Counted from the stretch's first letter, positions 2,045 through 63,391 are shown. The stretch is DNA of 64,000 bases from Microgenomates group bacterium (GCA_049303675.1 JBAQNJ010000001.1:472711-536710); one strand, 5' to 3'. Notes: generated by a model from the sequence alone, not told the origin. Translations and numbers: made by a program.

Positions 2045-5000
2045 GTGGAACTAAACCAGCAGCAACAGCAAGCAGTCGATACTATCGAGGGACCAGTGAT
2101 GGTCATTGCCGGCGCTGGTACCGGTAAAACCCAAGTCATTGCCCACCGTATCGCCAATATTTTACAAAAAACCCAAACATCACCTTCATCAATTTTATGT
2201 CTGACATTTACCGACAATGCTGCGACCAACATGCGCACCCGCCTTATCAGTCTGATTGGCCCTACTGCCTATTCAGTTCGTATTCATACCTTCCATTCAT
2301 TTTGCCAAGAAATCATCCAATCACATCCGGATTATTTTATTTTTGCCCCCAAACTAATCGCTATCGAAGAACTCGACAAAATCCAAATTATTCGTGGTTT
2401 ATTGGACAAGTTGCCGGACAACTCAACTATTAGGCCATGGGGAGATCATTATTTTTATCAGCGTGATATTATTTCTGCCATTCAGACTCTTAAGCGCGAA
2501 AACATTTCTGTTGATAAATTATCAACCCTAATTTCCGATCAAGAAAAATTTATCTCACTAATCACTGATCACTATTCACTGCTCAAATCACTCCGTGTCA
2601 ACGTCGACCTCGACAATCAAATTACCAGCATTTCTCAAAAATTACTTAATTTACCAAATATATCATCATCAATCTTGTCACTAATCACTTATCACTCTTC
2701 ACTATATAAAAATGGTGGCTACAATTTAGGAGCAGCTAAAAATCCAGCTATCAACTATAAAAATGCTCTCCTTAAATTTATTGATAATTTAATTCGCGAT
2801 ATCCCCAAACAAAAAGATTTACAAACCATCTATCTAGGCTACCAATCTGCTTTGCAGACAAATGGTTATTACGATTTTGACGATATGATTTTGTTTGTTA
2901 TCCGTGCCTTTGAGGCACACCCTGATCTACTGTTAGAACATCAAGAACAATCCCAATATTTTCTAGTTGATGAATATCAGGACACCAACTCCGCCCAGAA
3001 CAAAATCATCAATCAATTAGCCTCCTATTATGATCAGCCCAATTTATTTGTAGTTGGAGACGACGATCAGTCTATTTTCAGATTCCAAGGAGCCAGTACC
3101 GCCAATATCCTCGATTTTTATAATCAATATCATCCGACAGTTATTGTTCTTCAAAATAATTATCGTAGCCATCAGCTAATTCTCGACTCTGCCTCCTCAG
3201 TTATCCGCCGTAACCAAAATCAATTGGTAAATTACATCAAAAATATTGACAAGTCTTTGGTGTCTGCGCTCACTCTGGACACCGATCCTATAAATATAAT
3301 CACCCCCCAAACCACGATTGAAGAAAATTATTTTATCAGTATCAAAATCCGCCAATTATTAGATCAGGGGACACCGCCTAGCGAAATTGCCATTTTATTT
3401 CGTAATAATTCCGATATCGCCGATCTAGTGGAGCATTTATCAGTTGCCAAAATAAAATATTTTCTCTCCTCTGATCAAAATATTTTAGATCTACCTCTAA
3501 TCCGTCAGATGATCTATTTGCTTACTCTAATTGACGACCAGTCCAGAAAGGATCTCGTTTACCATCTGCTTTGTGCCCCCTTTATCAATCTAAATTCCAA
3601 TGATATCAATACTCTCTTACTTGGCCGTGATTTACTGAATTACAAGGCAAAGGGTATTTCCCAAACATCAAAAATAAAAATCAAAAATTTGATTCTCCGA
3701 CTCAATCTAGCCCGCAAATGGGTAGTAAATTTACCACTAGATAGATTTTTCGACAAGATTATCCGTAAATTCAAAATACTTAAATCTGTGCTGGCTACCC
3801 ACGACCCCCACTTATTAAACGCCCTCAATACTTTTTATCAGCATCTGCGCCACCAATTCGACCTTTCAGATTTGACTCTCCACCAATTTGTCTTGTATCT
3901 TCAGTCACTCTCAGACAACAATTTACCACTAGTCGCTCCCCAACTACCCGAAGATTCGGCAAATTCTATTCAGCTCCTCACCGTTCATCGAGCCAAAGGA
4001 CTCGAATTTTCCCATGTTTTTTTGTACAAAGTTGTCGACAAAAAATGGGGTAATAGTGTTGACAGGAATCACTTGCACTTGCCTCTGGGTATTATTAACA
4101 CCTCAGTTTCCTCAGAACTGGATGACCAGAACGAAGAGGAACGTCGTTTATTCTATGTCGCTCTGACCCGAGCCAAATCACAAATCTATATTTCCTATAG
4201 TCAACAAAACCAAAATGGTCGGCCACAATTGCCTTCCCAATTTATCAGTGAAATAGATCCGCAGTTAATTCAACCGGTCCTCCTGCCGGATAATTTATAC
4301 CAAAATTCGTTGTCGAGTCTTTTTTCCGACAAAAATATTTTTCATCGTCAGGATCACGCTTTCACCAATTATCTAAAAACTTTTTTGACTACTGATTATA
4401 TTTTCAATGTCACCCACCTCAATTCTTATCTACGCTGTCCACTTTGTTTTTATTATCAAACTATTTTACGTCTACCCGCTGTTCGTGACAAATTCAGTAG
4501 TTTCGGTACCGCCATTCACGAAGCCTTGTCTTTTGCCTACACCATTTCTTCTTCACAACCAGACATTAAAAACATTTTTGAGAAGTCATTAAAACACCAA
4601 CATTTATCCCAAAATGATTTTAATGAAAGTCTCGCTAGGGGATTTCAAACTTTAGTTGAGTATGTTGATTTTTATCGTGTTAAGCCCAGCAAAAATTATC
4701 AAGTCGACTATGACTTCAAAAAAGAGCATCAGTATTTGGACAATATTCCACTAACCGGCAAAATAGATTTGATCGAGAAAATAGGGGATAAGCTGAATCT
4801 ATATGATTTCAAGACAGGAAACCCCGATTCCAAAAGTACGGAGTTGGGTCCGGACGGGGAGTATTTTCGTCAAATCGCTTTTTACCATTTACTAATTTCC
4901 AGTAGCAGTCGTCTACCTCACCAGATCATTAGTTCATATATTGATTTTGTCCAAAAAAGCAAAACCAAAGATACCTTTATTCGCAAAGAAATAACCATTA

Positions 5001-5149
5001 CACCCGAAGATATCCAGAAATTAGAAGTCCAAATAAGAGAGGTCTATCAGAAAATTCTCGCTCTGGAATTTAATAATATCGGCTCTGGGTGTCAGGACAA
5101 ACATCATTTACATTATTTATTTGGCAATTCCGTTTCTGAAAAATATTAA
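2045..5149 (+). CDS. UvrD/PcrA-family superfamily-1 DNA helicase fused to a C-terminal PD-(D/E)XK (Cas4/AddB-like) nuclease domain
   Basis: Helicase motifs: Walker A GAGTGKT, motif II DEYQDTN, motif III VGDDDQSIFRFQGA, and C-terminal helicase motifs VHRAKGLEF and LFYVALTRAK. The C-terminus carries GKIDLIEK...LYDFKTG, a RecB-type nuclease signature. GTG start. Confidence 0.85.
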   Translation: MELNQQQQQAVDTIEGPVMVIAGAGTGKTQVIAHRIANILQKTQTSPSSILCLTFTDNAATNMRTRLISLIGPTAYSVRIHTFHSFCQEIIQSHPDYFIFAPKLIAIEELDKIQIIRGLLDKLPDNSTIRPWGDHYFYQRDIISAIQTLKRENISVDKLSTLISDQEKFISLITDHYSLLKSLRVNVDLDNQITSISQKLLNLPNISSSILSLITYHSSLYKNGGYNLGAAKNPAINYKNALLKFIDNLIRDIPKQKDLQTIYLGYQSALQTNGYYDFDDMILFVIRAFEAHPDLLLEHQEQSQYFLVDEYQDTNSAQNKIINQLASYYDQPNLFVVGDDDQSIFRFQGASTANILDFYNQYHPTVIVLQNNYRSHQLILDSASSVIRRNQNQLVNYIKNIDKSLVSALTLDTDPINIITPQTTIEENYFISIKIRQLLDQGTPPSEIAILFRNNSDIADLVEHLSVAKIKYFLSSDQNILDLPLIRQMIYLLTLIDDQSRKDLVYHLLCAPFINLNSNDINTLLLGRDLLNYKAKGISQTSKIKIKNLILRLNLARKWVVNLPLDRFFDKIIRKFKILKSVLATHDPHLLNALNTFYQHLRHQFDLSDLTLHQFVLYLQSLSDNNLPLVAPQLPEDSANSIQLLTVHRAKGLEFSHVFLYKVVDKKWGNSVDRNHLHLPLGIINTSVSSELDDQNEEERRLFYVALTRAKSQIYISYSQQNQNGRPQLPSQFISEIDPQLIQPVLLPDNLYQNSLSSLFSDKNIFHRQDHAFTNYLKTFLTTDYIFNVTHLNSYLRCPLCFYYQTILRLPAVRDKFSSFGTAIHEALSFAYTISSSQPDIKNIFEKSLKHQHLSQNDFNESLARGFQTLVEYVDFYRVKPSKNYQVDYDFKKEHQYLDNIPLTGKIDLIEKIGDKLNLYDFKTGNPDSKSTELGPDGEYFRQIAFYHLLISSSSRLPHQIISSYIDFVQKSKTKDTFIRKEITITPEDIQKLEVQIREVYQKILALEFNNIGSGCQDKHHLHYLFGNSVSEKY

Positions 5150-6235: not shown

Positions 6236-7276
6236 ATGACTCTCATCTACATCTTGCTATTAATCATCCTCGCCACCCTTGGCTACTTTATATATCGTCA
6301 AAGTCAGATCAAAGCTATCGAGCCAGATTTATCCAAAGCCATTGATACTCTGGTCAAATTGAGTAATGAAAAATTAGATGATAAAACCAAACAGATTTCA
6401 GTCGATCTAGCAGGCAAAAAAGACGCCATCGAAAAAATGGTCCGCGACATCAGTGAAAATTTAACCAAGGTTGAGAAAGAACGAGTTGGCAGTTTTACCA
6501 ATTTACGTGATGCCATCGAAAACAATGTCAAATTAACCAAAGAATTGTCGGTTACTACCGAAGGTCTAAAACGTGTTTTAAGTAACAACCAACAGCGTGG
6601 TGCTTTTGGCGAAAAAGTCGCCGAGGATTTGTTAAAAATGTCGGGTTTCGTCATCGGCACTGACTACACCCGTCAAGAAACAACCGGGGACGCCCGACCC
6701 GATTTTACCCTATATTTACCCGATAAAACAAAGATTAATATTGATTCTAAATTTCCTTATTCCAACATTGTCAATATGAGTGAGGCTCCTGAAACAGATC
6801 AAAAAAATCATTTTAAAAAGTTATTTGAACAAGATATCAAAAAGAAAATTAATGATGTCACCTCCAGAAATTATATTAATCCCGAGGACAATACTGTTGA
6901 TTTTGTGATTTTGTTTATCCCTAACGAAATGATTTTTAGTTTTATTTACGAAAGTTTCCCCAATGTCTGGCAAGACGCCCTCAACCGAAAAGTCGTCATG
7001 ACCGGTCCATTTTCTTTTACCGCTATTTTGCGCATGGTCAAGCAAGCCTATGAAAATTTTAGATTTCAAAAAAATGTTCAGGGAATTATTACTCAAATCA
7101 AAATTTTTGGTACCGAGTTTGAAAAGTACAATGAAGAGTTTGTCAAAATCGGGGATAGGATCGACAGTCTCCACAAGCAATACGATGAGGTAGGTGCCAC
7201 TCGTACCAAGAAGCTGCAAAAAGTTATTGACAAGATAAATCTTGAAGACAGCACCCATCATGCACTCCCTCTATAG
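6236..7276 (+). CDS. rmuC: DNA recombination protein RmuC
   Basis: N-terminal TM helix, a long coiled-coil, then the conserved RmuC block LSNNQQRGAFGEKVAEDLL and a C-terminal nuclease-like domain. Confidence 0.7.
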   Translation: MTLIYILLLIILATLGYFIYRQSQIKAIEPDLSKAIDTLVKLSNEKLDDKTKQISVDLAGKKDAIEKMVRDISENLTKVEKERVGSFTNLRDAIENNVKLTKELSVTTEGLKRVLSNNQQRGAFGEKVAEDLLKMSGFVIGTDYTRQETTGDARPDFTLYLPDKTKINIDSKFPYSNIVNMSEAPETDQKNHFKKLFEQDIKKKINDVTSRNYINPEDNTVDFVILFIPNEMIFSFIYESFPNVWQDALNRKVVMTGPFSFTAILRMVKQAYENFRFQKNVQGIITQIKIFGTEFEKYNEEFVKIGDRIDSLHKQYDEVGATRTKKLQKVIDKINLEDSTHHALPL

Positions 7277-7564
7277 TGTTTTTGTTTTTACTTTTTACTT
7301 TTTACTTTTAATTTTTATCAACGTCTTTGCCCCCACCTCACCTCTACTTATTGCCACATTTTTTCTCTTATTATTCTGCGCTATTTTTTGTACGCTAAAT
7401 ATATTTTTAAAAAACATTAAAAAAAGCCTACTAATAGGGCTATTTTTTATAGCCTTACTTCTACTCCATTTTTTTCAGCAGATTTCGATATTAAATATTG
7501 TCCTAGTGTTTTTACTTTTTATTTTTGGATTTTGGATTTAGGTTTTTGCCTCTCATTTCCCCTC

Positions 7565-7594
7565 TTGACACCTGTTAGCACTCTATGTAATATA
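7565..7594 (+). promoter_or_regulatory. sigma-70-type promoter of hrcA (TTGACA-N17-TAATAT)
   Basis: TTGACA at 7565-7570, a 17-nt spacer, TAATAT at 7588-7593. The predicted TSS is about 7600-7603, at or next to the hrcA ATG (7603), so the transcript is leaderless. Confidence 0.5.
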
Positions 7595-7601
7595 TTGCTA
7601 A
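7575..7601. promoter_or_regulatory. CIRCE-like HrcA operator (TTAGCACTC-N9-TATTGCTAA)
   Basis: The left arm matches the CIRCE consensus TTAGCACTC exactly, the spacer is 9 nt, and the right arm matches 6 of 9 positions of GAGTGCTAA. It overlaps the spacer and -10 of the hrcA promoter. Confidence 0.55.
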
Positions 7602-10737: not shown

Positions 10738-10790
10738 ATTGCGAGGTCCGGCTCCGGCCGGACCGCGGCAATCTTTAACAACGTGATTTT
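10738..10790. repeat. dispersed intergenic repeat, copy 1 (tcattgcgagg - hairpin - cgcggcaatctttaacaacgtga)
   Basis: 12-nt and 23-nt conserved arms are shared with 62868-62920. The internal part is a GC hairpin ggtccggc-tccg-gccggacc. It lies directly 3' of the dnaK stop. Confidence 0.5.
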
Positions 10791-10804
10791 AAAAAAATAA
10801 AAAC

Positions 10805-14721: not shown

Positions 14722-14804
14722 ATATCATCATTCCAGTATTCCCAGTTTTAGGTATATAATTCAGAGATTTTACTAAAACTATTTTTTTAATCAAAATATG
14801 TTTT

Positions 14805-14856
14805 ACCCTCGATGTCTTGGGAGGGTCGTCCCGACAAAGTCGGGACGGGGTTGGGT
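14805..14856 (+). other. pair of GC-rich hairpins upstream of infB (possible leader or attenuator structure)
   Basis: accctc-gatgtcttg-ggaggg, then gtcccgac-aaa-gtcgggac (a perfect 8-bp stem) followed by ggggttgggtttta. Confidence 0.35.
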
Positions 14857-17570: not shown

Positions 17571-17687
17571 ATGGAAAAGAAAATTCAAACAACCATAGGT
17601 GATCCAAAACCAGAACCAAAAACCCCGGATACAGGCACAGGTCCTGCCCAGCCAAGTAGTGGTGCTCCCAGTAGTGACAAAAAATAA
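17571..17687 (+). CDS. possible small ORF (38 aa, Pro/Thr/Ser-rich)
   Basis: ATG...TAA ORF below the 60-aa cutoff of the ORF track; low complexity. Confidence 0.2.
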   Translation: MEKKIQTTIGDPKPEPKTPDTGTGPAQPSSGAPSSDKK

Positions 17688-17690
17688 CCC

Positions 17691-17712
17691 AGTGCTATAA
17701 TCCGCGCATTAA
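17691..17712 (+). promoter_or_regulatory. extended -10 promoter module A (aGTGcTATAATccgcgcattaa)
   Basis: TGnTATAAT with TATAAT at 17696-17701. This 22-mer is 21/22 identical to module B. Confidence 0.45.
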
Positions 17713-17732
17713 ATATACATTATTTACCTACT

Positions 17733-17963
17733 ATGGATATTTTTCCCGCCAAGAAAACAGTCGAGCCAGATTGTAAGAAAAAAAGGGGGTATCCAACAGC
17801 CGATCAAAAACAGACAACAGTTCACATAATATTGGAAGGGCATGTTCCCTGCGGTGGATGTCATTATGTTCGGACAAACTTAAGTCAAGACTTTCAGTTA
17901 GACAGTTGGGATCCGGATAGAAAGTGTCTACTTAGTATTCCTCCTGTAGGAAGAAAATTATAA
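17733..17963 (+). CDS. hypothetical small Cys-containing protein (76 aa)
   Basis: ORF 33 nt downstream of promoter module A; contains PCGGCH. Confidence 0.4.
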   Translation: MDIFPAKKTVEPDCKKKRGYPTADQKQTTVHIILEGHVPCGGCHYVRTNLSQDFQLDSWDPDRKCLLSIPPVGRKL

Positions 17964-17966
17964 TTT

Positions 17967-17988
17967 AGTGCTATAATCCACGCATTAA
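17967..17988 (+). promoter_or_regulatory. extended -10 promoter module B (aGTGcTATAATccacgcattaa)
   Basis: Near-identical copy of module A (21/22). Confidence 0.45.
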
Positions 17989-20849: not shown

Positions 20850-20884
20850 ACTGTTTACTATCAACTGAAAACTGTTAACTGAAT
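20850..20884 (+). repeat. tandem heptamer array (ACTGTTT ACTATCA ACTGAAA ACTGTTA ACTGAAT), 16 nt upstream of the lon-like start
   Basis: Five contiguous 7-nt units sharing the ACTG core. The array is homologous along its whole 35 nt to those at 26263 and 28443. Confidence 0.6.
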
Positions 20885-20900
20885 ATAGTATACTTTTTCT

Positions 20901-21962
20901 ATGGATTCTGCTGCCCTGACACCCCAATCAGCCATCGCCAAACTTACAGAAAAATCACAATCAGTCAAATTACCCGATGGTATGGCTGACAAATTAAGTG
21001 AGCTTTTTTCTCAACTCCAAATCAACGCTCGATCCGAGGATACATTTTGGCAATATTATCAATCAGTTTCCAAATATGTCGACTGGGTAATATCTTTGCC
21101 ATGGTACAAGGAAAGTGCTGATATTCTCGACCTCCAACATACCATGGAAAAATTGAATGAAGGTCATTATGGCCTCCAAATGGTCAAAGATCGCCTTCTC
21201 GAATATATCTCTGTATTAGCCCTGCAAAAAGCCCGTCATCCCGACCAAAAGCTACGCTCACCCATCTTATTATTTGTCGGGCTAGTCGGTACCGGCAAGA
21301 CCACTATGGCCAAATCAATTGCTACAGTCATGGGTCGGGAGCTTATCCGCATTCCTTTTGGTGGACTGGGTGACCCACTTTATCTTCGTGGTCAGTCCCG
21401 CATTCACCCCGAAGCCGAGCCGGGAGCCATCATCAGGGGATTGGCCAGTGCCAAGACCCGCAATCCGGTCATTTTATTAGACGAGATAGACCGTGTCGCC
21501 GATGAAGCCCTCAACACCATTATGGGAGTCCTCGTAGAATTATTAGATCCCGAGCAAAACGATCGTTTTACCGACCATTATGTCGATTTTCCCTTTGATC
21601 TCTCCCAAGCTTTTTTCGTGGCTACTTGCAACAATACTACCCGTATTGCCACCGCCGTCATGGATCGTCTCGAACCAATTCAAATGCCCTCCTACAATGA
21701 CGAGGAAAAGATTGGTATTGGTAGGGACTATCTCTTGCCTCGAGCTCTCAAGGATGCTGGTTTATCATCTGATGATTTATCTATTGCCGATGGTGTCTGG
21801 ACCAACATTGTTCGTCCACTAGGTTTTGACTCAGGAGTCCGGACACTTAAAAGAAATATCGAAGGATTATGCCGCAAAGTCGCCTTATTGATTTTATCCG
21901 GCAAAGAAAAAAAAGTTGTTGTCGACGAATCCAATGTTAAATTTTATCTCCCCCAATGGTAA
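20901..21962 (+). CDS. Lon-family AAA+ ATPase module without the S16 peptidase domain
   Basis: LNEGHYGLQMVKDRLLEYISVLA (Lon-specific pre-AAA motif), Walker A GLVGTGKTT, Walker B ILLDEIDR, and a GVRTLKRNIEGLCRKVA lid helix. The ORF stops exactly where the protease domain would begin, and no DGPSAG motif lies downstream. Confidence 0.7.
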   Translation: MDSAALTPQSAIAKLTEKSQSVKLPDGMADKLSELFSQLQINARSEDTFWQYYQSVSKYVDWVISLPWYKESADILDLQHTMEKLNEGHYGLQMVKDRLLEYISVLALQKARHPDQKLRSPILLFVGLVGTGKTTMAKSIATVMGRELIRIPFGGLGDPLYLRGQSRIHPEAEPGAIIRGLASAKTRNPVILLDEIDRVADEALNTIMGVLVELLDPEQNDRFTDHYVDFPFDLSQAFFVATCNNTTRIATAVMDRLEPIQMPSYNDEEKIGIGRDYLLPRALKDAGLSSDDLSIADGVWTNIVRPLGFDSGVRTLKRNIEGLCRKVALLILSGKEKKVVVDESNVKFYLPQW

Positions 21963-22217
21963 AAGCCTCAGTCAAAGAATCATATCCAGTCCTCGTGCTA
22001 GTCATGTTAGCCCTAGCCTTTGTAGTTTTACTCATGACACTTTATCCCTACTTTAGGTAAAATATGCCAATCTATTTGCAATTCAAATATCCTTCTGTTA
22101 CACTCTCTTCACAGCTATTGAATATATTTACTGCCAAGGAAGTTAGTTTTACCGCTTTTTATGTGTATCAAAATTTCCTCTCACAGTTTTTCACTGGCCG
22201 ATTATTAGGTATAAATT

Positions 22218-23993
22218 ATGTTAAATAACAATTTTAAACCAAAAACAAATGTCCGCTTACCAGTTCCAGCCCAATTTTCTGGCGCCCAGTCTCAAGTCCG
22301 CCAGTTCAACCACAAACTAGATTCCCTGCGTATTGTCTCCCTCGGAGGCTTTGGTGATGTCACCCAAAACATGTATGTCTACGAGTACATCCCCAATGGC
22401 GATGAGTCCAAGAGTCAGATCATCATTGTCGACTGCGGAGTCGGCTTTCCCGAAGAAGATGATTTTGGTGTCGATCTCCAAATCCCTGATACCAAATATC
22501 TTGACAACAAAAAGGACCGAATTCTCGGTATTTTTATCACTCATGGTCACGAGGATCATATTGGTGCTCTTCGATTTATTCTCCCCATTATTGGTACCAA
22601 TATTCCTATCCATGCCCCTCGTATGGCTGCCGCTTTTATCGAAGGCAGGTTAGTTGAGGCTAACATTCGATCCAAAATGACTGTTTATGAATCCGGTGAC
22701 ATCATCACTGCTGGTCCCTTTACAGTTGAAACAATCCGCGTCAACCATTCCGTTCCCGATACCAATCATTTTGCCATTACCTCTCCAGTGGGAGTTGTCT
22801 ACCATGGCTCAGATTTTAAATTTGATTTGTTCCCTCTCGATGGCAAACCCACTGACTACGGCCGCATTGCCCGCACCGGAGAGAAGAAGGTTATTGCCCT
22901 ACTCTCCGATTGTCTCGGTTCTGATCATCCGGGTTTTTCCCCTTCTGAAAGTTCTATCGCCGAAGCCTTTGAACATGAAATCAAGACAGCTAAGGGCCGT
23001 ATTTTTGTAACAACTATTTCCTCCAACATTGTTCGTTGGGGGCAGGCTATAGATTACGCCAAACGCGCCGGTCGCAAGATCGTCACTGTCGGCTACTCAG
23101 TCGATAAAGCTATCAAAATTGGCCAAGAATTGGGCTATATCAATATCACTGATGCCGACATTGTCCCTATCGAACGGGTCAAAAACTTTGCTGAAAATAA
23201 ATTAATTTTTTTGGTGGCTGGTTTTGCCGCTCAGGCCAATTCTGCCCTCTCCAAAATGGTCATGGGTAAGCATCGGGTCAAAATCAAGTCAGGGGACAAG
23301 GTTATCTTTTCTTCACCAGACTATATTCCGGGCACCACCTCCAAAATCTTTGAATTAATTGATGTACTCTCCAAACTTGGGGCCGATGTGGTCTCTGGTG
23401 ATGGTCAGGAAATCCATGTCTCCGGCCACGGTTTTCAAAAAGAGCACGCCATGTTGATCAATTTGGTCAGGCCAAAATATTTACTACCTATTGGTGGAAA
23501 TTACCGCCATATCAAAAGCTATTTCAAAATGGCCAAAGCCATGGGTATGAAGGATGAACAGTTTATCAACCCTGACAGTGATTCCATCATCACCTTTTAT
23601 AGCAATGGCACCTATGATCAAAAATCCCACAATCCCATTCGCAAAGTCCTGATTGATGGACTAGGCATTGGCGATGTCGGGGCTACAGTTTTGCGGGATC
23701 GAAAATTATTAGCCGAGGAGGGAATGTTCTCTGTGGTTCTGATGGTCAACAAGGCCTCGGGCAAGTTGGTCAAGGAGCCTGAGATTCTCTCCCGTGGGTT
23801 TGTCTTTGTTAAGGACAACACCGACCTAATTGACTATTTGAAACAAGAGATCAATCGCAAGTTCACCGAAGTTAGCAGTGCTCCTGCCAACTTTGAATAT
23901 ATCCGTCAACAGCTTCAGGGCCATATCGAACAGGTGATTATGGACAAGACCGGTCGCCAGCCCATGGTTCTACCGTTGGTGATGGAGGTATAA
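22218..23993 (+). CDS. rnj: ribonuclease J (metallo-beta-lactamase / beta-CASP RNase)
   Basis: HGHEDHIG zinc-binding motif, beta-CASP motifs and a C-terminal domain. 591 aa. Confidence 0.9.
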   Translation: MLNNNFKPKTNVRLPVPAQFSGAQSQVRQFNHKLDSLRIVSLGGFGDVTQNMYVYEYIPNGDESKSQIIIVDCGVGFPEEDDFGVDLQIPDTKYLDNKKDRILGIFITHGHEDHIGALRFILPIIGTNIPIHAPRMAAAFIEGRLVEANIRSKMTVYESGDIITAGPFTVETIRVNHSVPDTNHFAITSPVGVVYHGSDFKFDLFPLDGKPTDYGRIARTGEKKVIALLSDCLGSDHPGFSPSESSIAEAFEHEIKTAKGRIFVTTISSNIVRWGQAIDYAKRAGRKIVTVGYSVDKAIKIGQELGYINITDADIVPIERVKNFAENKLIFLVAGFAAQANSALSKMVMGKHRVKIKSGDKVIFSSPDYIPGTTSKIFELIDVLSKLGADVVSGDGQEIHVSGHGFQKEHAMLINLVRPKYLLPIGGNYRHIKSYFKMAKAMGMKDEQFINPDSDSIITFYSNGTYDQKSHNPIRKVLIDGLGIGDVGATVLRDRKLLAEEGMFSVVLMVNKASGKLVKEPEILSRGFVFVKDNTDLIDYLKQEINRKFTEVSSAPANFEYIRQQLQGHIEQVIMDKTGRQPMVLPLVMEV

Positions 23994-23999
23994 AAAGTT

Positions 24000-24257
24000 A
24001 TGCCAGCCGGAGTTAGAGTAATCATAGGTGATACCCAATCCTATTTTGATATAGGTAAAGAGCGTGAAGAATTAGTTCCAGTTTATTCAACAGATGAAAA
24101 TGGAATTACAGCTCAAGTTATGTCTGTCCGAGCAACTCCAACTGGATCTACACAAGTAACCTTTTTTTCACCATCTGGTTTAGTAGATAGGATGACTCCA
24201 AATAAAATGAGGGTTACATTGCCTGATAAAACAATAGTTCTAACTGGAATTCGTTAA
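24000..24257 (+). CDS. hypothetical small protein (85 aa)
   Basis: ORF only. Confidence 0.4.
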   Translation: MPAGVRVIIGDTQSYFDIGKEREELVPVYSTDENGITAQVMSVRATPTGSTQVTFFSPSGLVDRMTPNKMRVTLPDKTIVLTGIR

Positions 24258-24349
24258 TCAATCAAAATTTGTTACAATAATCCCAAGCCCGCTTTTGTTA
24301 TAAATTTATTTATGGCATAGCGGGTGTTTTTTGGTGTATAATAAATCCA

Positions 24350-24500
24350 AACCTAAGAAACGGTATCCCGCCGTGGAGGTCCCCGACAAAATATCGGGGC
24401 GGAACTGAACCGTATAAATTCACCAGAGATTAAGAAGGGTGGTACCGTTTCGATTTATCGAGACCCCTTAAAAATTATTTATAGTTTTTAGGAGGTCAAT
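24350..24500 (+). promoter_or_regulatory. T-box riboswitch-like leader (compact) upstream of the tRNA-binding-protein/proS operon
   Basis: A TATAAT at 24337-24342 lies upstream. The T-box consensus AAGGGUGGUACCG is at 24435-24447. It folds as a canonical antiterminator: A1 helix AAGGG/CCCUU (24435-39 with 24465-69), a 7-nt bulge UGGUACC, and A2 helix GUUUCGA-UUUA-UCGAGAC. An F-box-like CCGTAT is at 24408-13 and an AGAGA at 24425-29. A GC-rich stem-I-like hairpin spans 24368-24404. CCU-A lies near the 5' end (24352-55). An SD AGGAGG sits at 24490-95. Confidence 0.5.
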
Positions 24501-24836
24501 ATGGCAACATATGATGATTTTGTAAAACTCGATGTTCGAGTTGGTAAAGTAGTTTTAGTCGAAGATTTTCCTGAGGCCAAAAAACCCGCCTACAAACTAA
24601 CTATCGATTTTGGTAATGAAATCGGGATTAAACATTCTAGCGTTCAAATTGTAAAATTTTATAAAAAAGAAGAATTAAAAGATAAATTGGTTTTAGGTGT
24701 TGTCAATTTTCCACCTCGTCAAATTGGCCCATTTGTATCCGAATCCCTAACCTTGGGCGTTCCTGATGTTAATGGTGATTGTATCTTAATTACTCCTGAC
24801 AAGTCTCAAGCCATAATTGGTGGTAAGCTATTTTAA
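24501..24836 (+). CDS. tRNA-binding domain protein (CsaA/Trbp111/EMAP-II-like OB fold)
   Basis: LDVRVGKVVLVEDFPEAKKPAYKLTIDFG....VVNFPPRQIG..SE.L.LG matches the MetRS C-terminal-type tRNA-binding domain. Confidence 0.7.
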   Translation: MATYDDFVKLDVRVGKVVLVEDFPEAKKPAYKLTIDFGNEIGIKHSSVQIVKFYKKEELKDKLVLGVVNFPPRQIGPFVSESLTLGVPDVNGDCILITPDKSQAIIGGKLF

Positions 24837-24840
24837 TCAT

Positions 24841-26256
24841 ATGCAACAATTACCTGATTTCAAAACAAACTTGTCCGAATGGTTTAATGAAATTGTCCTC
24901 AAGGCTGAATTAGCCGACTATGCCCCAGTCAAGGGATGTATGGTCATCCGCCCTTATGGCTATGCCCTCTGGGAAAACATCCAGCAATTCATGGACAAAT
25001 TGATCAAAGAGCATGGAGTTCAAAATGCCTATTTTCCCTTGTTTATTCCCATGTCTTATTTTCAAAAAGAAAAAGAGCATGTTGAAGGTTTTTCTCCCCA
25101 GCTGGCTATCGTGACTATTGGTGGTGGCAAAGAATTATCTGAAAAACTAGTAGTTCGACCCACCTCCGAAATGATGATGTACGAAATGTACAAAAAATGG
25201 TTTGGCTCGTGGCGCGATTTACCTGTCCAAATGAATCAATGGTGCAACATTGTCCGTTGGGAAAAACGAACGTATCTTTTCTTGCGTACTTCTGAGTTTT
25301 TATGGCAGGAGGGTCACTGTGCCCATTTGACCCACGAAGAATCTATTGCGGAAGTTGAGTGGGCCATCAAAATGTATGGCCAGACTTATAATGAGTTGAT
25401 GGCTATGTATGGAATAATTGGCTACAAGAGTGACTCAGAAAAGTTCGCTGGCGGATACAAAACAATCACTTTCGAATCTCTTATGCCCAATGGTAAATCA
25501 CTCCAAGCTTGTACTTCCCATGATCTAGGTCAAAACTTTTCTCATTCAATCGACTGGACTGTTCAGGACAAAGAAGGCCAGAAAGCCTACCCATGGCAAA
25601 ATTCGTGGGGTTTTTCTACCCGTAGTATCGGCGGATTAATTATGTCTCATGGCGATTCAAAAGGATTAGTCTTACCTCCAAATATCGCGCCAACTCAAGT
25701 GGTCATTGTGCCTATTCCCAATCACGCCACAGCTCTTCATAAATCCCAAGAATTATTTGACCAACTAAAAGCTAATTATCGGGTCAAACTCGACACACTC
25801 GAGGGAGAAACAGCAGGCTACAAATTTAACAAATGGGAAATACAGGGTATTCCTCTCCGAATCGAGCTAGGCGATCGCGATGTCTCCACTGGTACAGTTA
25901 TTATTTATCGTCGGGACACTGGAGAAAAAGTAATAACTGACTTTGATGATGTTAAAAATACTATTCAAAAATTATTAGTTGAAATACAAAAAAATCTTTT
26001 TGAGAAGCATAAAAAATTTACTATTGACCATACATTCAAAGCCGATACTTATGACGAATTCAAAAAAATAATGGTCACCAGTCGTGGGTTTATTTCTGCC
26101 CACTGGTGCGAACAAAAAGATTGCGAGGCCACCATCAAAACCGACACCAAGGCTACCACTCGTTGTCTGCCTCTTGATGTACCTGAGGAATCAGGCAAGT
26201 GTGTCCGTTGTGGCGCGCCCTCTTCTCACCGCTGGCTCTTTGGCCTTAGTTACTAA
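24841..26256 (+). CDS. proS: proline--tRNA ligase (archaeal/eukaryote-like class II form, no INS editing domain, C-terminal Zn-binding domain)
   Basis: Class II motifs and a C-terminal CEQKDCE...CVRCG. The start is taken at the ATG at 24841, immediately after the upstream stop. The ORF-track start at 24817 would overlap the previous gene. Confidence 0.9.
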   Translation: MQQLPDFKTNLSEWFNEIVLKAELADYAPVKGCMVIRPYGYALWENIQQFMDKLIKEHGVQNAYFPLFIPMSYFQKEKEHVEGFSPQLAIVTIGGGKELSEKLVVRPTSEMMMYEMYKKWFGSWRDLPVQMNQWCNIVRWEKRTYLFLRTSEFLWQEGHCAHLTHEESIAEVEWAIKMYGQTYNELMAMYGIIGYKSDSEKFAGGYKTITFESLMPNGKSLQACTSHDLGQNFSHSIDWTVQDKEGQKAYPWQNSWGFSTRSIGGLIMSHGDSKGLVLPPNIAPTQVVIVPIPNHATALHKSQELFDQLKANYRVKLDTLEGETAGYKFNKWEIQGIPLRIELGDRDVSTGTVIIYRRDTGEKVITDFDDVKNTIQKLLVEIQKNLFEKHKKFTIDHTFKADTYDEFKKIMVTSRGFISAHWCEQKDCEATIKTDTKATTRCLPLDVPEESGKCVRCGAPSSHRWLFGLSY

Positions 26257-26262
26257 CTAATT

Positions 26263-26297
26263 ACTGTTCACTGTTCACTCTTAACTGTATACTGAAT
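26263..26297 (+). repeat. tandem heptamer array (ACTGTTC ACTGTTC ACTCTTA ACTGTAT ACTGAAT), ending 2 nt before the ftsK ATG
   Basis: Five contiguous heptamers; same 35-nt architecture as the 20850 and 28443 arrays. Confidence 0.6.
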
Positions 26298-26299
26298 AT

Positions 26300-28399
26300 A
26301 TGCCACGTGGACGCAAAAAGAAGGGGATCTTTCCCACTGTTAAATTAAAACCAGAAACCAGTAAAACTATTCTTTTTGTTTTCTTTTTTGTACTGGCACT
26401 TTTTTCGGTCGCGTCGTTTCTTCAGGTCGGGACCATTACCACTCAATACAACAATATTCTCACCCAATATTTTGGCTACGCCGCTGTCATGGTGCCATTT
26501 CTACTCCTGCTCATTTCCTTTTCTTTTTCCAAACTAAAGTTCCCTCTCAAAGAGGCCAATGTTCCTCTTGGTTTTACTGTCATGTTTATCGCTATTATTG
26601 GATTATTTTCCCAAGGAGTTGTCGGCAGCTTCTTTTGGTTCCAACTTATTACCATGTTTGGTTCTGTGGCTACATTATTAATTTTAATTCTCTCTTTTGT
26701 CATCGGTTTCGTCGTTTTATTTGACACCGATATTGCCACCATCATTAAGTTTATAATCAAAGTTTTTTTGGCAATCAAAAAAATTACAGTTGGTGATGGC
26801 ACTAGGTTTAGTAAAACCAAAAAATCAAAACTCGATAATGAGCCAATCTACATTCAGGATCAATCAAAATTAACCAAAGAAAAAGATGAAATTGGTGTAG
26901 CCCATATTGCCCCCATCTTCAAGTCTCCCACTCCGGCAATGAATCTCAGTCACAACTCAGGCTCTTCCCTCAAATCCAAAGACAACCAAATTTGGCAGTA
27001 TCCTACCCTAGATATTTTTGATAATACCCCAGGTGCCAAAGCCGACAGGGGAGATGTTCGCAAAAATGCCCAAACTATCGAAAAAACTCTCGAGTCATTT
27101 GGTATCACCGCCAGAGTTGCCGATGTCAACAATAGTCCTTCGGTCACTCAATATGCGCTTGAAGTAGCCCTTGGCACCAAGCTCGCCAAAATCGTTAGTC
27201 TCAGCAACGACCTAGCTATGGCTCTTGCTGCTCCGGGCGGTCAAATCCGCGTCGAAGCCCCCATCCCTGGTAAATCATTGGTCGGTATCGAGGTCCCCAA
27301 CCGATCTCTCGAAGTTGTCCCCATACGAACTATTTTGGCCTCCGACGTCATGAGCTCAGCCAAGTCCAAGATTTCTGTACCCTTAGGCTTGGACGTTGCC
27401 GGACAACCCCGTATTGCTGATATCGCCAAAATGCCACATGTTTTAATTGCTGGCCAGACAGGTTCGGGAAAATCAGTTTGTGTTAATTCTTGGATTTCCA
27501 CTATGTTATATCGGTCTTCACCCTCGGAGCTGCGTCTTATTATGGTCGATCCCAAACGTGTCGAGTTGACTCCCTACAATGGTATTCCCCACTTGTTAAC
27601 CCCAGTCATTGTCGAGCCGGAAAAAGTTCTCTCCGCTCTCAAATGGGCGGTCAAAGAAATGGAGGAGCGGTACAAGAGATTTACCGAAGTTGGCGCCAAA
27701 AACATTGAGAGCTACAATAACATGGCCGGTTTTCAGTCAATGTACTATATTATTATTGTCATCGACGAATTAGCTGAAATTATGCTTTTCTCCCCCTCAG
27801 AAGTCGAGGACAATATTTGTCGTATCGCCCAAATGGCTCGAGCAGTAGGAATACATCTTGTTCTGGCCACTCAGCGTCCCTCTGTCAATGTTATTACTGG
27901 TCTTATCAAGGCCAATATTCCTACCCGTATTGCCTTTGCTGTTTCTTCAATGACCGACTCGCGGGTAATATTGGACAGCCCTGGTGCCGAGAAACTCCTC
28001 GGTAGGGGAGATATGTTATATATTCCCCCAGAGTTAGCCAAGCCGGTTCGAGTTCAAGGATGCTTCATCTCCGACAAAGAAATTGAAAAGTTGATCAATC
28101 ATCTCAAATCTCAAAAAGTGACCGACTACAATGATGAGATTACCTCCCAACCAGTCAATATCCCAGGGTCAAAAAACAACAATATCGTCAAAGTAGACGG
28201 CGAAAATCACGACGCCCTGTTTAGCGAGGCAGTCGCTTATATCAAGGAAACCCGCACCGCCTCCGCCACCAATCTCCAAACCCATTTCACTATTGGTTTT
28301 GCTCGTGCCCGTCGAATTCTCAACGAGTTGGAATCAGCTGGTGTTGTTGGTCCAGTCAACGGTGCCAAGCCCCGTGAAATACTTGTTCCTCGTAATTGA
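26300..28399 (+). CDS. ftsK: DNA translocase FtsK/SpoIIIE
   Basis: N-terminal polytopic membrane domain, motor domain with GQTGSGKS Walker A and VIDELAE Walker B, and a C-terminal winged-helix gamma domain. Confidence 0.9.
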   Translation: MPRGRKKKGIFPTVKLKPETSKTILFVFFFVLALFSVASFLQVGTITTQYNNILTQYFGYAAVMVPFLLLLISFSFSKLKFPLKEANVPLGFTVMFIAIIGLFSQGVVGSFFWFQLITMFGSVATLLILILSFVIGFVVLFDTDIATIIKFIIKVFLAIKKITVGDGTRFSKTKKSKLDNEPIYIQDQSKLTKEKDEIGVAHIAPIFKSPTPAMNLSHNSGSSLKSKDNQIWQYPTLDIFDNTPGAKADRGDVRKNAQTIEKTLESFGITARVADVNNSPSVTQYALEVALGTKLAKIVSLSNDLAMALAAPGGQIRVEAPIPGKSLVGIEVPNRSLEVVPIRTILASDVMSSAKSKISVPLGLDVAGQPRIADIAKMPHVLIAGQTGSGKSVCVNSWISTMLYRSSPSELRLIMVDPKRVELTPYNGIPHLLTPVIVEPEKVLSALKWAVKEMEERYKRFTEVGAKNIESYNNMAGFQSMYYIIIVIDELAEIMLFSPSEVEDNICRIAQMARAVGIHLVLATQRPSVNVITGLIKANIPTRIAFAVSSMTDSRVILDSPGAEKLLGRGDMLYIPPELAKPVRVQGCFISDKEIEKLINHLKSQKVTDYNDEITSQPVNIPGSKNNNIVKVDGENHDALFSEAVAYIKETRTASATNLQTHFTIGFARARRILNELESAGVVGPVNGAKPREILVPRN

Positions 28400-28442
28400 T
28401 TTTCATGAAAAATCTCCATAATCTCCAATCATTCACCTATCT

Positions 28443-28477
28443 ACTGTTCACTGTTAACTATTAACTGATAACTGATC
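28443..28477 (+). repeat. tandem heptamer array (ACTGTTC ACTGTTA ACTATTA ACTGATA ACTGATC), ending 1 nt before the rodZ-like ATG
   Basis: Five contiguous heptamers; homologous to the arrays at 20850 and 26263. Confidence 0.6.
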
Positions 28478-28478
28478 A

Positions 28479-29090
28479 ATGTTTCGCACTTCTATTATTC
28501 TCAAAAACGCCCGCGAAGATAAGGATTTGACAGTTGCCGAGGTTAGCAAAAAACTAAAAATTTCCCAAAAATATATCGAGGCAATTGAAAATGAAAACCG
28601 TTCCCTTTTCCCTTCAGAACCATATTGTTCACTCATAATTAAGGACTACGCCAGTTTTTTGGGACTATCTCCAGATGATATTTTATCTCTTTTCCGACGA
28701 GATTTCGCTGCTAACCCCTGTCAAACTAACCCTACTCCTGTAAAATTTTTTTTGACTCCTCAAACCACCTTCAGAGTAGCTGTCGTGGCCACAATTTTTA
28801 TTTTTGTTGTCTATGTCGTTACTGAATATTTCAAATACAACCAAGCCCCTCCACTTAAAATAAATTGGCCCAGTGATGCAGGGCTCACCCTCGCTTCCAA
28901 GATTGAGATTACTGGTTCAACCGATGCTGAGTCGACCGTCAGAGTCGACAACGATTTAATTATTGTCGATCAATTCGGCAATTTCAAAAAAATAATCAGC
29001 TTGATTAAGTCGGATCAAATAATTGCCATCGAGTCTCGTTCCCACAGTGGCAAAACCACCCGTGTCGAAAAAACCTACCATCCCCAATAA
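28479..29090 (+). CDS. RodZ-like membrane protein (N-terminal XRE-type HTH, TM helix, extracytoplasmic C-domain)
   Basis: LTVAEVSKKLKISQKYIEAIENEN HTH; TM helix VAVVATIFIFVVYVV. Confidence 0.5.
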   Translation: MFRTSIILKNAREDKDLTVAEVSKKLKISQKYIEAIENENRSLFPSEPYCSLIIKDYASFLGLSPDDILSLFRRDFAANPCQTNPTPVKFFLTPQTTFRVAVVATIFIFVVYVVTEYFKYNQAPPLKINWPSDAGLTLASKIEITGSTDAESTVRVDNDLIIVDQFGNFKKIISLIKSDQIIAIESRSHSGKTTRVEKTYHPQ

Positions 29091-36444: not shown

Positions 36445-37526
36445 TCTTTTTTATTCACCAACTCATTTAGTCTTACCCATCGTTCTTTTTTAACTTTCAT
36501 TGATACATCGTTTGGCATTAGTTTGGCCGAGACAGTCCCTAGTCTGGGTGAGTATTTATTAAGATAAGCTATTTCAAATCCAACCTTTTGACACACATCC
36601 ACAGTATCTTCAAATTGGGCATCTGTTTCGCTAGGGAACCCGATAATTATATCTGTACTAAATTTTACTCCAGTCACTTTTGACTTAATATTTTTTACCA
36701 GATCCAAATAATCTTTTTTGGTATAGGCTCGATTCATCTTCTTCAATATTTCATCATTACCCGATTGAAAGGGGAGATGGAGGAGTCGATCAATATTTTT
36801 GTGTTTGGCGATCACCTCAATTAGTTCATCGGAAAAATCCCATGGATTACTACTCACAAAAGATATCTTTTGTAAATTTCTTTTGGCGACATTTTGTAGT
36901 AACTCTGGAAATCTACTTTTAATTCTCTTTTTACCCATATGGACATAACTATCTGTCTCAAAATCACTCCCATAGCTATTTACATTTTGACCAATCAAGA
37001 CTACTTCTGAGAAACCGCTCTCTACTGCCCTATCCACCTCCGCCAATATATCCGCCATAGTTCTCGATCTCTCTACTCCCCTAGCCTTGGGTACAATACA
37101 AAAAGTACAATGGTTATTACAACCGGTACTTATTGAGACTAGGGCCGCCCCTTTTTTGGCTCTAATTGGCTCCCACACCAAATATTTATCAATTCTCACC
37201 CATTCATCTACCCCTTTGATATCTTTTTGACCATACGCCCCTACCGCACAACCCGTAATTATTACTCTTGGACTAGAATTCGTAATTCGTAATTTGTAAT
37301 TTTTAATTAATTCAACCAGTCCGTAAGCTCTATTTTCAGCACTTTCCCGAACTATACAGGTATTGATTACTACTTCACTTGCATCCTGCCATTTATTGAC
37401 TACATCATATCCTTTTTCCCAATAATACGCCTTAATCCGTTCTGAATCAGCTACATTCTGGGCACAGCCAAAAGTTTTGATAAATACTTTTTTATTCGCG
37501 GTTGACATTAAAGACCATTTTACCAC
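36441..37526 (-). CDS. radical-SAM methylthiotransferase of the MiaB/RimO family (no TRAM domain)
   Basis: MTTase N-domain VFIKTFGCAQNVADSE, radical-SAM cluster motif ISTGCNNHCTFC, 361 aa. The true start is probably MSTANKK at 37508. Confidence 0.8.
   Translation of the reverse strand: MVKWSLMSTANKKVFIKTFGCAQNVADSERIKAYYWEKGYDVVNKWQDASEVVINTCIVRESAENRAYGLVELIKNYKLRITNSSPRVIITGCAVGAYGQKDIKGVDEWVRIDKYLVWEPIRAKKGAALVSISTGCNNHCTFCIVPKARGVERSRTMADILAEVDRAVESGFSEVVLIGQNVNSYGSDFETDSYVHMGKKRIKSRFPELLQNVAKRNLQKISFVSSNPWDFSDELIEVIAKHKNIDRLLHLPFQSGNDEILKKMNRAYTKKDYLDLVKNIKSKVTGVKFSTDIIIGFPSETDAQFEDTVDVCQKVGFEIAYLNKYSPRLGTVSAKLMPNDVSMKVKKERWVRLNELVNKKD
37280..37307 (+). repeat. tandem heptamer array (TCGTAAT x2, TTGTAAT, TTTTAAT) embedded antisense in the miaB-like CDS
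   Basis: Near-identical to the array upstream of fusA (60711-60738). On the coding (-) strand it is read in frame as ...LIKNYKLRITN... Confidence 0.5.
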
Positions 37527-49063: not shown

Positions 49064-49495
49064 ATGAAATTTTCCCTTGATACGAGTCTTCAAAGAGGTT
49101 ATTACGCGGTTCTAATTCAGACTGCTGAAGCTCTTAATACCAAATTAACAGAACTAAACTCTCGTAAATTTCCTATAGAAAATGTAACTTTAGATCTAAA
49201 TGATGGTTATAAAGTTAGTTTTGAGACTGGAGATAAAAAGCTTGCCAATTCCATTGAAACAGCGATGAAAACAGCAGCAAGTGTCGGCCAATTACTTACC
49301 AGTTACCAATGTGAACAGATATCTGGTCGAACAATCCACCAGAATGACGGCGAAATACGACCTCCTGTCACCAATGAAGAAATTGCTGCCCGTATAAAAA
49401 GTTGTGTTTCAACTACAATCGACAGAGAAATTGGTACTGGGTATACTGCTAGGCTAAAAAGTCAGGCCAGAAATTCACTTAGTAGAATTAAATAA
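49064..49495 (+). CDS. hypothetical protein (143 aa)
   Basis: ORF only; first gene of the insertion between rpsG and fusA. Confidence 0.45.
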   Translation: MKFSLDTSLQRGYYAVLIQTAEALNTKLTELNSRKFPIENVTLDLNDGYKVSFETGDKKLANSIETAMKTAASVGQLLTSYQCEQISGRTIHQNDGEIRPPVTNEEIAARIKSCVSTTIDREIGTGYTARLKSQARNSLSRIK

Positions 49496-49553
49496 TATTT
49501 CTTTGTTTACTTTTTAAGTTTAGTATTTTTCTTGGTTGTGCTAACATTAATCA

Positions 49554-60687: not shown

Positions 60688-60703
60688 ATTATTTATTATT
60701 TAT

Positions 60704-60745
60704 TCATAAATCGTAATTCGTAATTCATAATTCGTAATTAATTTT
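60704..60745 (+). repeat. tandem heptamer array (TCATAAA TCGTAAT TCGTAAT TCATAAT TCGTAAT TAATTTT), ending 2 nt before the fusA ATG
   Basis: Homologous to the array inside the miaB-like gene (37273-37313). Preceded by TTATTTA repeats at 60688-60703. Confidence 0.55.
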
Positions 60746-62853: not shown

Positions 62854-62867
62854 AGAGTTTACCCGCC

Positions 62868-62920
62868 GTGGCGGGTCATTGCGAGGAGCATAGCGACGCG
62901 GCAATCTTTAACAACGTGAC
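62868..62920. repeat. dispersed intergenic repeat, copy 2 (gtcattgcgagg-N20-cgcggcaatctttaacaacgtga)
   Basis: Same conserved arms as 10738-10790. Preceded by a small hairpin cccgcc-gt-ggcggg at 62858-62871. Lies immediately 3' of fusA. Confidence 0.5.
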
Positions 62921-62929
62921 TTAAATACA

Positions 62930-62958
62930 ATATCCCCCAGAAATGGGGGATATTTTTA
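62930..62958 (+). terminator. terminator hairpin, copy 1 (atatccccc-agaaat-gggggatat plus TTTT)
   Basis: Perfect 9-bp stem and T-run. Duplicated at 63362-63391. Confidence 0.6.
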
Positions 62959-62980
62959 ATTACTGTGATACAATCCCCAA

Positions 62981-63280: not shown

Positions 63281-63361
63281 TCAATTTTCATTCTTGCAAA
63301 GCTATTTTCTTACCAACCCTGTCCTAAACTGACCATCAAAGTAGGAAAAGAATAAATAACA

Positions 63362-63391
63362 ACATCCCCCAGAAATGGGGGATATTTTTAA
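63362..63391 (+). terminator. terminator hairpin, copy 2 (acatccccc-agaaat-gggggatat plus TTTT)
   Basis: One mismatch relative to copy 1. Followed by tttaacaac, the same tail as the dnaK/fusA repeat. Confidence 0.55.

Follow-up and report, generated by a model that had tools for sequence, protein, structure and literature searches.

Tandem ACTG-core heptamers before the lon-like, ftsK and rodZ-like start codons of a Microgenomates bacterium resemble known start-proximal repeats and, at two genes, meet a conserved -10 box

The closest described counterpart of the element reported here is the TAACTGA direct repeat of Candidatus Maribeggiatoa (MacGregor 2015, PMC4679880), which forms 170 sets of two to six copies; 147 of these sets face a start codon, with 1 nucleotide (nt) upstream of it as their commonest end point, and 132 are without a ribosome-binding site (RBS). 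These sets are often 'split' by one-base variants, the genes downstream follow no functional pattern, some copies lie in open-reading frames (ORFs), where the TCACTGA variant translates to SLITDH, and Cyanobacteria and a few Bacteroidetes have the repeats as well. No function was assigned to them; binding of ribosomal protein S1, cold-shock protein (Csp) or CsrA was suggested, or alternatively that the repeats play no part and the genes are like leaderless mRNAs (PMC4679880). Here we analyse 64,000 nt of the genome of a Microgenomates group bacterium (GCA_049303675.1, JBAQNJ010000001.1:472711-536710; this whole stretch is the window hereafter), in which three arrays of tandem ACTGNNN heptamers stand shortly before the start codons of a lon-like gene, ftsK and a rodZ-like gene. 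All coordinates are positions in the window, which covers 64 kb of the ~998 kb genome, and counts of arrays, genes and repeats apply to the window. What is new is a lineage of the candidate phyla radiation (CPR) for an already described, functionally unexplained repeat class.

All three arrays are on the + strand. Array 1 (20850-20884) reads ACTGTTT ACTATCA ACTGAAA ACTGTTA ACTGAAT and is followed by 16 nt (ATAGTATACTTTTTCT) and the lon-like ATG at 20901, which places its ACT trinucleotides at -51, -44, -37, -30 and -23 relative to the ATG; the spacer itself (20885-20900, +) holds two degenerate in-register units, ATAGTAT ACTTTTT, and then CT, and with these counted the array ends 2 nt before the ATG. 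Array 2 (26256-26297) has six heptamers, ACTAATT ACTGTTC ACTGTTC ACTCTTA ACTGTAT ACTGAAT, followed by AT and the ftsK ATG at 26300; its five-unit core lies at 26263-26297, and the additional sixth unit, ACTAATT at 26256, overlaps the proS stop codon, whose final base is its first. Array 3 (28443-28477) reads ACTGTTC ACTGTTA ACTATTA ACTGATA ACTGATC and is separated from the rodZ-like ATG at 28479 by one A. The distances of 16, 2 and 1 nt, the strand and the 5 x 7 nt layout bear out the original prediction, which had listed five units for each array, and so does the absence of a Shine-Dalgarno (SD) sequence: no GGAG, GAGG, AGGA, GGA or GAG occurs between -25 and -1 of any of the three genes. Over all 16 units the consensus is ACT (16/16), then G (12/16), then W-rich sequence without G.

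The check on chance frequency that had been proposed together with the arrays was run on the window. A five-unit pattern with up to two mismatches matched at the three loci only, against 0.00 expected from 100 dinucleotide shuffles, and runs of at least four ACT at period 7 occurred six times on the + strand and never on the - strand, against none in 100 Markov-2 simulations; an unbiased repeat finder returned the arrays as the two largest direct-repeat families (D1/D2) in the window. The arrays had further been taken for copies of one 35-nt element, alignable along their whole length. In register they are identical at 26, 26 and 28 of 35 positions between pairs, yet permuted unit orders score at least as well in fractions of 0.32, 0.28 and 0.10 of cases, so whole-length homology is rejected: what the arrays have in common is a unit consensus, not descent from one 35-nt element. 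The G-less third heptamer that had been offered as the mark of common descent is present in arrays 2 and 3, and in array 1 it is the second unit that lacks the G.

Nor is the motif undescribed, as had been supposed, since MacGregor (PMC4679880) reported TAACTGA repeats before SD-less starts, and the window unit equals TAACTGA up to rotation (ACTGATA = TAACTGA). Array 3 has TAACTGA TAACTGA, with TAACTGATAACTGA present verbatim, whilst arrays 1 and 2 each consist of TAACTGA or TAACTGT and variants in five to six units. As in the TAACTGA sets, the arrays lie on the coding strand, end shortly before the ATG and go with genes that have no RBS; a helicase gene of the window carries an array inside its ORF that encodes a SLITDH-type peptide, and in the 64 kb covered the downstream genes have no evident functional theme. 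The differences are that the dominant window unit is ACTGTTN, not ACTGATA, that the host belongs to the CPR/Patescibacteria, a lineage without a report in PMC4679880, and that two of the three window arrays overlap the conserved -10 of an apparently leaderless gene and would be promoter DNA, not 5' untranslated region.

Other heptamer classes are less close. The short tandemly repeated repetitive (STRR) sequences and G-rich GGGGA(C/T)T repeats of cyanobacteria (Calothrix, Nostoc; PMC4692102) are likewise tandem 7-nt intergenic units, often with an ACTG/CAGT core, but STRRs run to tens of copies of CCCCAGT, TTGGTCA or CAACAGT in heterocystous cyanobacteria, some of them G-rich with G-quadruplexes, and are not set at any fixed place relative to start codons. 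The window arrays have five to six copies of other units, are G-poor and unstructured, lie in a CPR genome and are not STRRs. In the summary given in PMC4679880, Mrazek et al. (2007) found heptanucleotides to be the most abundant class of long simple sequence repeats and attributed them to polymerase slippage; period 7 and the proposed slippage origin are shared with the window arrays, but the repeats so summarised are long and mostly perfect, whereas those of the window are short, with imperfect units and ACT invariant. As to function, the G-rich GGGGA(C/T)T heptamers of Nostoc and the GGGAATC heptamers of Xanthomonas have been studied and a regulatory role was not found, and a Nostoc preprint describes heptamer repeats near the recF and recO starts, where deletion of the recO repeats changed the response of a reporter to NtcA and LexA in E. 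coli.

At two of the three genes the array meets a promoter. In arrays 1 and 2 ACT recurs at -9-7k from the ATG (-9, -16, -23, -30, -37 and onward), so that the ACT at -9 to -7 is the 3' half of a -10 hexamer, TATACT. This hexamer lies at 20889-20894 for the lon-like gene, in the spacer behind array 1, and at 26288-26293 for ftsK, where units 5 and 6 of array 2 together form it; the gap to the ATG is 6 nt in both cases. A sigma-70-type leaderless promoter, that is a -10 with A-11 and T-7 and a gap of 5-7 nt, can therefore be drawn for the lon-like gene and ftsK, and not for rodZ. Because of this shared ACT we read arrays 1 and 2 as core-promoter and upstream DNA of genes that we infer to be leaderless. 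The promoter scan lists CTGAAA-18-TATACT for the lon-like gene; a -35 element inside the arrays is unconvincing, as only the lon-like gene has this combination and upstream of -16 nothing is conserved in relatives. Leaderless-gene promoters with a -10 box ~6-7 nt upstream of the start codon occur in Actinobacteria and Deinococcus-Thermus, and the present ones are alike in that TATACT or TATAAT ends 5-6 nt before the ATG, without SD, and is conserved in relatives. To our knowledge leaderless promoters are not normally made of, or preceded by, tandem heptamers, and in this the present loci differ.

The arrangement extends well beyond these two genes. Upstream regions of 60 window genes and of 91 genes from four relatives (L126-L129) were lined up by start codon, and a hexamer counted as -10-like if its second base was A, its sixth T and at least 5/6 positions matched TATAAT or TATACT. 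Such a hexamer ended 5-6 nt before the start in 19 of the 60 window genes and 5-7 nt before it in 33 of the 91 genes of relatives (background 0.0088 per position), whilst SD-like motifs were found in 5/60 and 5/91 respectively. Examples of the TATAAT/TATACT box in the window are at 826, 6236, 29123, 29705, 49064, 57845 (- strand), 58141 and 62981, and TATACT or AATACT followed by 6 nt and the start codon is also present at alaS, proS and the small gene after rodZ. About one third of genes in this lineage thus appear leaderless, with the transcription start placed from the hexamer, which implies that leaderless, SD-poor initiation would be pervasive in this Shapirobacteria-like CPR clade. In the literature searched we found no description of leaderless genes in Patescibacteria.

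Comparison with relatives separates the promoter from the repeats. The rodZ-like protein maps to GCA_049287145.1, on a 998-kb contig (JBAQFH010000001.1) of a Microgenomates group bacterium. The closest FtsK homologues are those of Candidatus Shapirobacteria, at up to 81% identity, and we compared seven syntenic loci (L126-L132; FtsK identity 73-81%). Across the eight related genomes, the window included, the -10 box is conserved whilst the upstream units vary in number (0-4), in period (7 or 8) and in type (ACTG or ACTT). At ftsK, TATACT or AATACT, 6 nt and ATG occur in 7/8 genomes, and in L126 the gap is 9 nt. The two promoter-proximal units, ACTnTAT ACTGnnn, are conserved, and the units further upstream differ widely: the window has four more ACTG-type units at period 7; L126 has ACTTTCTA ACTTTTT and then ACTTTAT; L130 has ACTTTAG ACTTTTTC ACTTTAAG, again ACTTT units, at the period of 7-8 that it has in common with L132; L132 has ACTTTCA ACTTTTAG ACTTTTGG ACTTTTAG at period 8; L127 and L129 have two units and none beyond; and L128 and L131 have no array. 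Overall at least four units with the ACT core are present at ftsK in 4/8 genomes and two units in 2 more. In L128 the -10 box itself is tandemly duplicated at period 7 (TTATAGT TTATACT TTATAC ATG). The idea that upstream units are inactivated -10 copies that have lost A-11 holds for the window and L126 and was dropped, as units of L130 and L132 contain TAGACT. The lon-like gene repeats the pattern in a simpler form, with TATACT and 6 nt in the window and in 5/6 relatives examined (L126-L130), AATACT 3 nt before the called GTG in L132, and the array itself absent in all six relatives whose upstream region was examined and present in the window genome only. The best-supported reading is that the arrays turn over over short evolutionary distances and that the conserved functional element would be the -10 box, not the array.

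Unit numbers that differ among related genomes raise the thought of a phase-variable contingency locus, in which heptamer copy number would shift the -10/ATG spacing or the upstream context and switch expression, and phase variation is known to work in some cases through tandem repeats placed between promoter elements (PMC4679880 summarises examples). The five independent assemblies of the window population (L121-L125), however, are 100% identical over the arrays, with no difference in copy number; the units are imperfect, which suppresses slippage; units added upstream of the -10 leave the -10/ATG spacing unchanged; and the genes are housekeeping genes, not surface antigens. We regard such switching as very improbable.

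The rodZ-like gene does not fit the promoter scheme. No hexamer with A2 and T6 lies 4-7 nt before its ATG, array 3 is shifted one base off the -9-7k register of arrays 1 and 2, and since the position that a leaderless start would require holds no acceptable -10 hexamer, array 3 probably sits in the ftsK-rodZ intercistronic spacer. This spacer has grown: from the ftsK stop to the rodZ start there are 8-17 nt in five relatives, against 79 nt in the window and 47 nt in L126, and in these two genomes the enlarged gap is partly filled by a heptamer array, of ACTG units in the window and of ACTTTTA ACTTTTT x2 in L126 (1/7 relatives).

A role in translation is one alternative. The arrays would then be transcribed, by read-through from pnp, proS or ftsK or from upstream promoters, and would give ribosomes a tract on which to land or scan without an SD, which keeps the start region open, with an oligonucleotide/oligosaccharide-binding (OB)-fold protein such as ribosomal S1 or a cold-shock protein as candidate binder, at a site of ~7 nt per unit. 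Forward arrays that end 1-2 nt before an ATG without SD suit this idea, as does an invariant ACT with a variable spacer, which fits a binding array; rodZ, without a -10, is otherwise translationally coupled to ftsK, and Beggiatoaceae, for which MacGregor names S1, Csp or CsrA as possible binders (PMC4679880), show a like arrangement. The DNA that separates the upstream genes from the arrays yielded no terminator-like site, and no RNA structure is predicted for the arrays, whose folding z-scores against shuffles are 0.3-0.8. These z-scores, together with zero matches to Rfam 15 at the gathering threshold in the whole window, rule out a riboswitch, attenuator or other structured RNA. Against a translational role, TATACT at -12 to -7 of the lon-like gene and ftsK predicts a start at the ATG, with the array outside the main transcript; most SD-less genes of the window have no array, unit sequences vary among relatives, several unrelated heptamers coexist in one genome, and no candidate binder was identified. 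We consider this role unlikely, if the least so of the alternatives discussed here. HutP reads UAG-N4 repeats, which have period 7, and TRAP reads GAG/UAG triplets, so a trinucleotide core repeated with a short variable spacer is common to these systems and the window arrays, and with HutP the period as well; the likeness is one of resemblance only, as the window core is ACU, not UAG or GAG, there is no terminator/antiterminator structure and a protein of this kind was not identified.

Period-7 arrays are by no means restricted to the three genes for which they had been reported. The window holds six ACT arrays and at least five other heptamer arrays, upstream of unrelated genes, and 7 is the commonest period returned by Tandem Repeats Finder (TRF) there. 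Two ACT arrays lie on the + strand within a UvrD-like helicase gene (ORF 2045-5149): ACTAATC ACTGATC ACTATTC ACTGCTC at 2557-2584, encoding SLITDHYSLL, and ACTAATC ACTTATC ACTCTTC ACTATAT at 2680-2707, encoding SLITYHSSLY. They are 92% identical over 26 nt, lie 123 nt apart and fall in a variable region, where the sequence of the closest helicase orthologue (P0121, 54% identity) is equally long and not periodic. This equal length rules out an insertion, and it seems that heptamer periodicity has overwritten the coding sequence while the length stayed the same. An internal start behind the second array is likewise ruled out, as the ATG at 2712 lies in another frame and would give an ORF of five codons. 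The remaining ACT array, ACTCGTA ACTGCTA ACTCCTA ACTTATA ACTTGTT (56723-56757, +), lies in the 3' part of an FAD oxidoreductase gene on the - strand and is reverse to it. Among the other heptamers, arrays of ACTTTTT type, a unit also found in the ftsK and rodZ arrays of relatives, are at 7272-7309, 7496-7533 and 49491-49528 (family D4); the first, on the + strand, is also delimited as 7285-7317, with TTTTTAC x ~5. ATTCGTA is repeated 5.4 times at 60702-60739 (+), ending 8 nt before the fusA ATG at 60748, and has a sister array at 37277-37308 (+) inside a - strand radical-SAM (MiaB-like) ORF (both family D5). An AAAATTA array precedes infB, a TTAACTT array precedes rpsG, and a gene for a LytR_C protein is also preceded by a heptamer array. 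Lag-7 autocorrelation in the 50 nt upstream of genes gives z = 4.5 in the window and 0.3, no signal, in relatives. With arrays before unrelated genes and inside ORFs, the downstream genes of the window have no evident common function and the propensity appears to be for period 7 as such. The original prediction had proposed, as one plausible role, a promoter or leader module shared by cell-division and quality-control genes; its promoter part comes close to what is seen at the lon-like gene and ftsK, with TATACT 6 nt before the ATG, and its sharing by function does not hold, given arrays before fusA, rpsG, infB and the LytR_C gene and the poor retention of the lon-like and rodZ arrays.

These results lead us to favour, at about an even chance of being right, slippage-made heptanucleotide repeats of the known ACTG-core class, lodged in promoter and intercistronic DNA and not forming a gene-specific operator. 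Heptamer repeats would occupy the short gaps before start codons, which would be the only non-coding DNA of a compact CPR genome. At the lon-like gene and ftsK the last units would supply or abut the -10, and the other units would fill the spacer, the -35 and further upstream positions in a 7-bp register; at rodZ the array would fill the expanded gap and be transcribed as an unstructured, G-poor, SD-less spacer. Such arrays would arise by replication slippage and turn over fast, and expansion may plausibly have been seeded by the direct repeat that the promoter itself contains, ACTnTAT-ACTG. Any role would be generic: the arrays would be flanking DNA, AT-rich, free of structure and rich in stops, that is tolerated or of slight use. 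They do not have the look of a dedicated regulatory switch.

Several observations weigh against this account. Positions 4-7 hold every one of the 24 deviations from the consensus ACTGTTA, a pattern that uniform decay would give with a probability of ~(4/7)^24, roughly 1e-6, a figure subject to ascertainment; the invariant ACT looks like a constraint on the core, as would be expected of a binding-site array, and ACT is also fixed in the period-7/8 arrays of relatives. Three unlinked arrays of the window have ACTG, against ACTT at the orthologous ftsK and rodZ of the closest relative, a split that suggests a genome-wide concerted change. All eight ACT-type and ATTCGTA-type arrays lie on the + strand whatever the local gene direction. 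Imperfect units and the identity of the five assemblies across the arrays leave no direct sign of ongoing slippage, and with no usable -10 at array 3 'promoter DNA' fails to cover all three arrays. The invariant core, the ACTG/ACTT split and the uniform strand keep both an OB-fold or translational function and a DNA operator alive.

As an operator, the arrays would be read by a sequence-specific DNA regulator of ACT(G/T) cores 7-8 bp apart that co-regulates ftsK, rodZ and the Lon-like ATPase. The invariant core with its variable spacer, the persistence of ACTTT/ACTGT units at ftsK and the ACTG of the window against the ACTT of L126, which would fit co-evolution with a factor, speak for such a protein. 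But operator or iteron arrays of the MraZ type have sites ~10-11 bp apart, and a period of 7-8 bp puts the sites off a single helix face; dyad symmetry is absent, neither the lon-like nor the rodZ array is conserved, heptamer arrays precede the unrelated fusA, rpsG and infB, and ACT arrays occur inside ORFs. No regulator gene lies adjacent. The RodZ-like protein itself is an unlikely candidate for the DNA-binding factor, as its helix-turn-helix and a transmembrane-like stretch are RodZ architecture. An operator is quite improbable in our estimation, more so than a translational element.

As regards the genes themselves, the Pfam domains agree with the names given at the outset. The lon-like gene (20901-21962, +) encodes an AAA+ ATPase with AAA and Lon_lid domains and no protease domain, and ftsK (26300-28399, +) has the FtsK alpha, motor and gamma domains; both appear leaderless. 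The rodZ-like gene (28479-29090, +) encodes HTH_25, one hydrophobic transmembrane-like stretch, judged by eye in the translation, and a C-terminal domain, and HTH_25 with this stretch fits a RodZ architecture.

ACTG-core arrays are widespread. A scan for five tandem ACTGN3 units found arrays in at least 120 loci, predominantly of phyla other than that of the window, from Cyanobacteria, Acidobacteriota, Planctomycetota, Chloroflexota, Bacteroidota, Candidatus Parabeggiatoa (Beggiatoaceae), Omnitrophota, a Saccharibacteria metagenome-assembled genome (MAG) and others, with ACTGGGG and ACTGTTG arrays among the matches listed. In the Saccharibacteria MAG (L030) a long array at 4680-4790 shifts its unit along its length from GAGTATT to ACTGAAT/ACTGCAT, which shows ACTG-core heptamer arrays in another CPR class. 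Among the matches listed, TRF returned 299, 99 and 68 rows for periods 7, 14 and 21 and up to 39 for any other period, an enrichment biased by the choice of these loci for one ACTG array each; at least 153 additional period-7 arrays were present in the listed loci, 37 of them with ACTG/CAGT, the commonest 4-mer, alongside many other unit types. In the test of orientation and start distance over the at least 120 loci listed (ORFs of at least 80 amino acids) the random-position control already reached 31%, and for orientation and distance we use the MacGregor counts. One bolder proposal is that ACT(G)-core arrays are the platform of a widespread putative single-strand nucleic-acid-binding protein with a 7-nt footprint (cold-shock-domain or S1-type OB fold), which would replace SD pairing or license promoters in SD-poor lineages of at least eight phyla. 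If it were true, the CPR arrays would be cases in which the platform is fused to the -10 of leaderless genes, and the ACT core, forward orientation and ACTG/ACTT variants would reflect co-evolution with the factor; we think this about as doubtful as the operator.

Several other features of the window were noted. Three promoter-like blocks, (A/T)GTG(C/T)TATAATCC(G/A/T)C..., lie at 17679-17712, 17955-17988 and ~18250, each before a small ORF or rpsO, and look like a duplicated extended -10 promoter cassette. A 36-nt dispersed repeat (CGCGGCAATCTTTAACAACGTGA...; copies 89% identical) is intergenic at 10764-10799 and 62897-62932 and is adjoined by GC-rich hairpins (CCCGCCGTGGCGGG; GTCCCGACAAAGTCGGGAC), with further sites at 14790-14850, 24350-24400 and 62855-62900; repeat and hairpins together, which have no Rfam match, may be a small structured repeat or an element resembling repetitive extragenic palindromes. 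Before hrcA-grpE-dnaK, a TTGACA-17-TAATAT promoter at 7565-7600 carries an inverted repeat, TTAGCACTC-N9-TATTGCTAA, resembling CIRCE (controlling inverted repeat of chaperone expression), which by its sequence is an ordinary, somewhat degenerate HrcA operator. Two 88% identical copies of a hairpin with T-tract (ATCCCCCAGAAATGGGGGATATTTTTAA) at 62918-62959 and 63350-63391 flank a small gene and are probable intrinsic terminators. The window (1-64000) has no tRNA genes, and its GC skew is negative throughout though most genes are on the + strand.

Start-proximal heptanucleotide repeats have been noted for years in Beggiatoaceae and Cyanobacteria without a mechanism. A ~1-Mb CPR genome offers a simpler system, in which the start-proximal DNA is apparently core promoter and arrays are gained, lost and re-periodised around a fixed -10, and in which MacGregor's alternative, that the repeats do not matter and the genes act as leaderless mRNAs, becomes directly testable. 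Leaderless starts at about one third of genes and almost no SD in these Shapirobacteria-like CPR would bear on gene calling and on translation in reduced genomes, and are probably under-reported.

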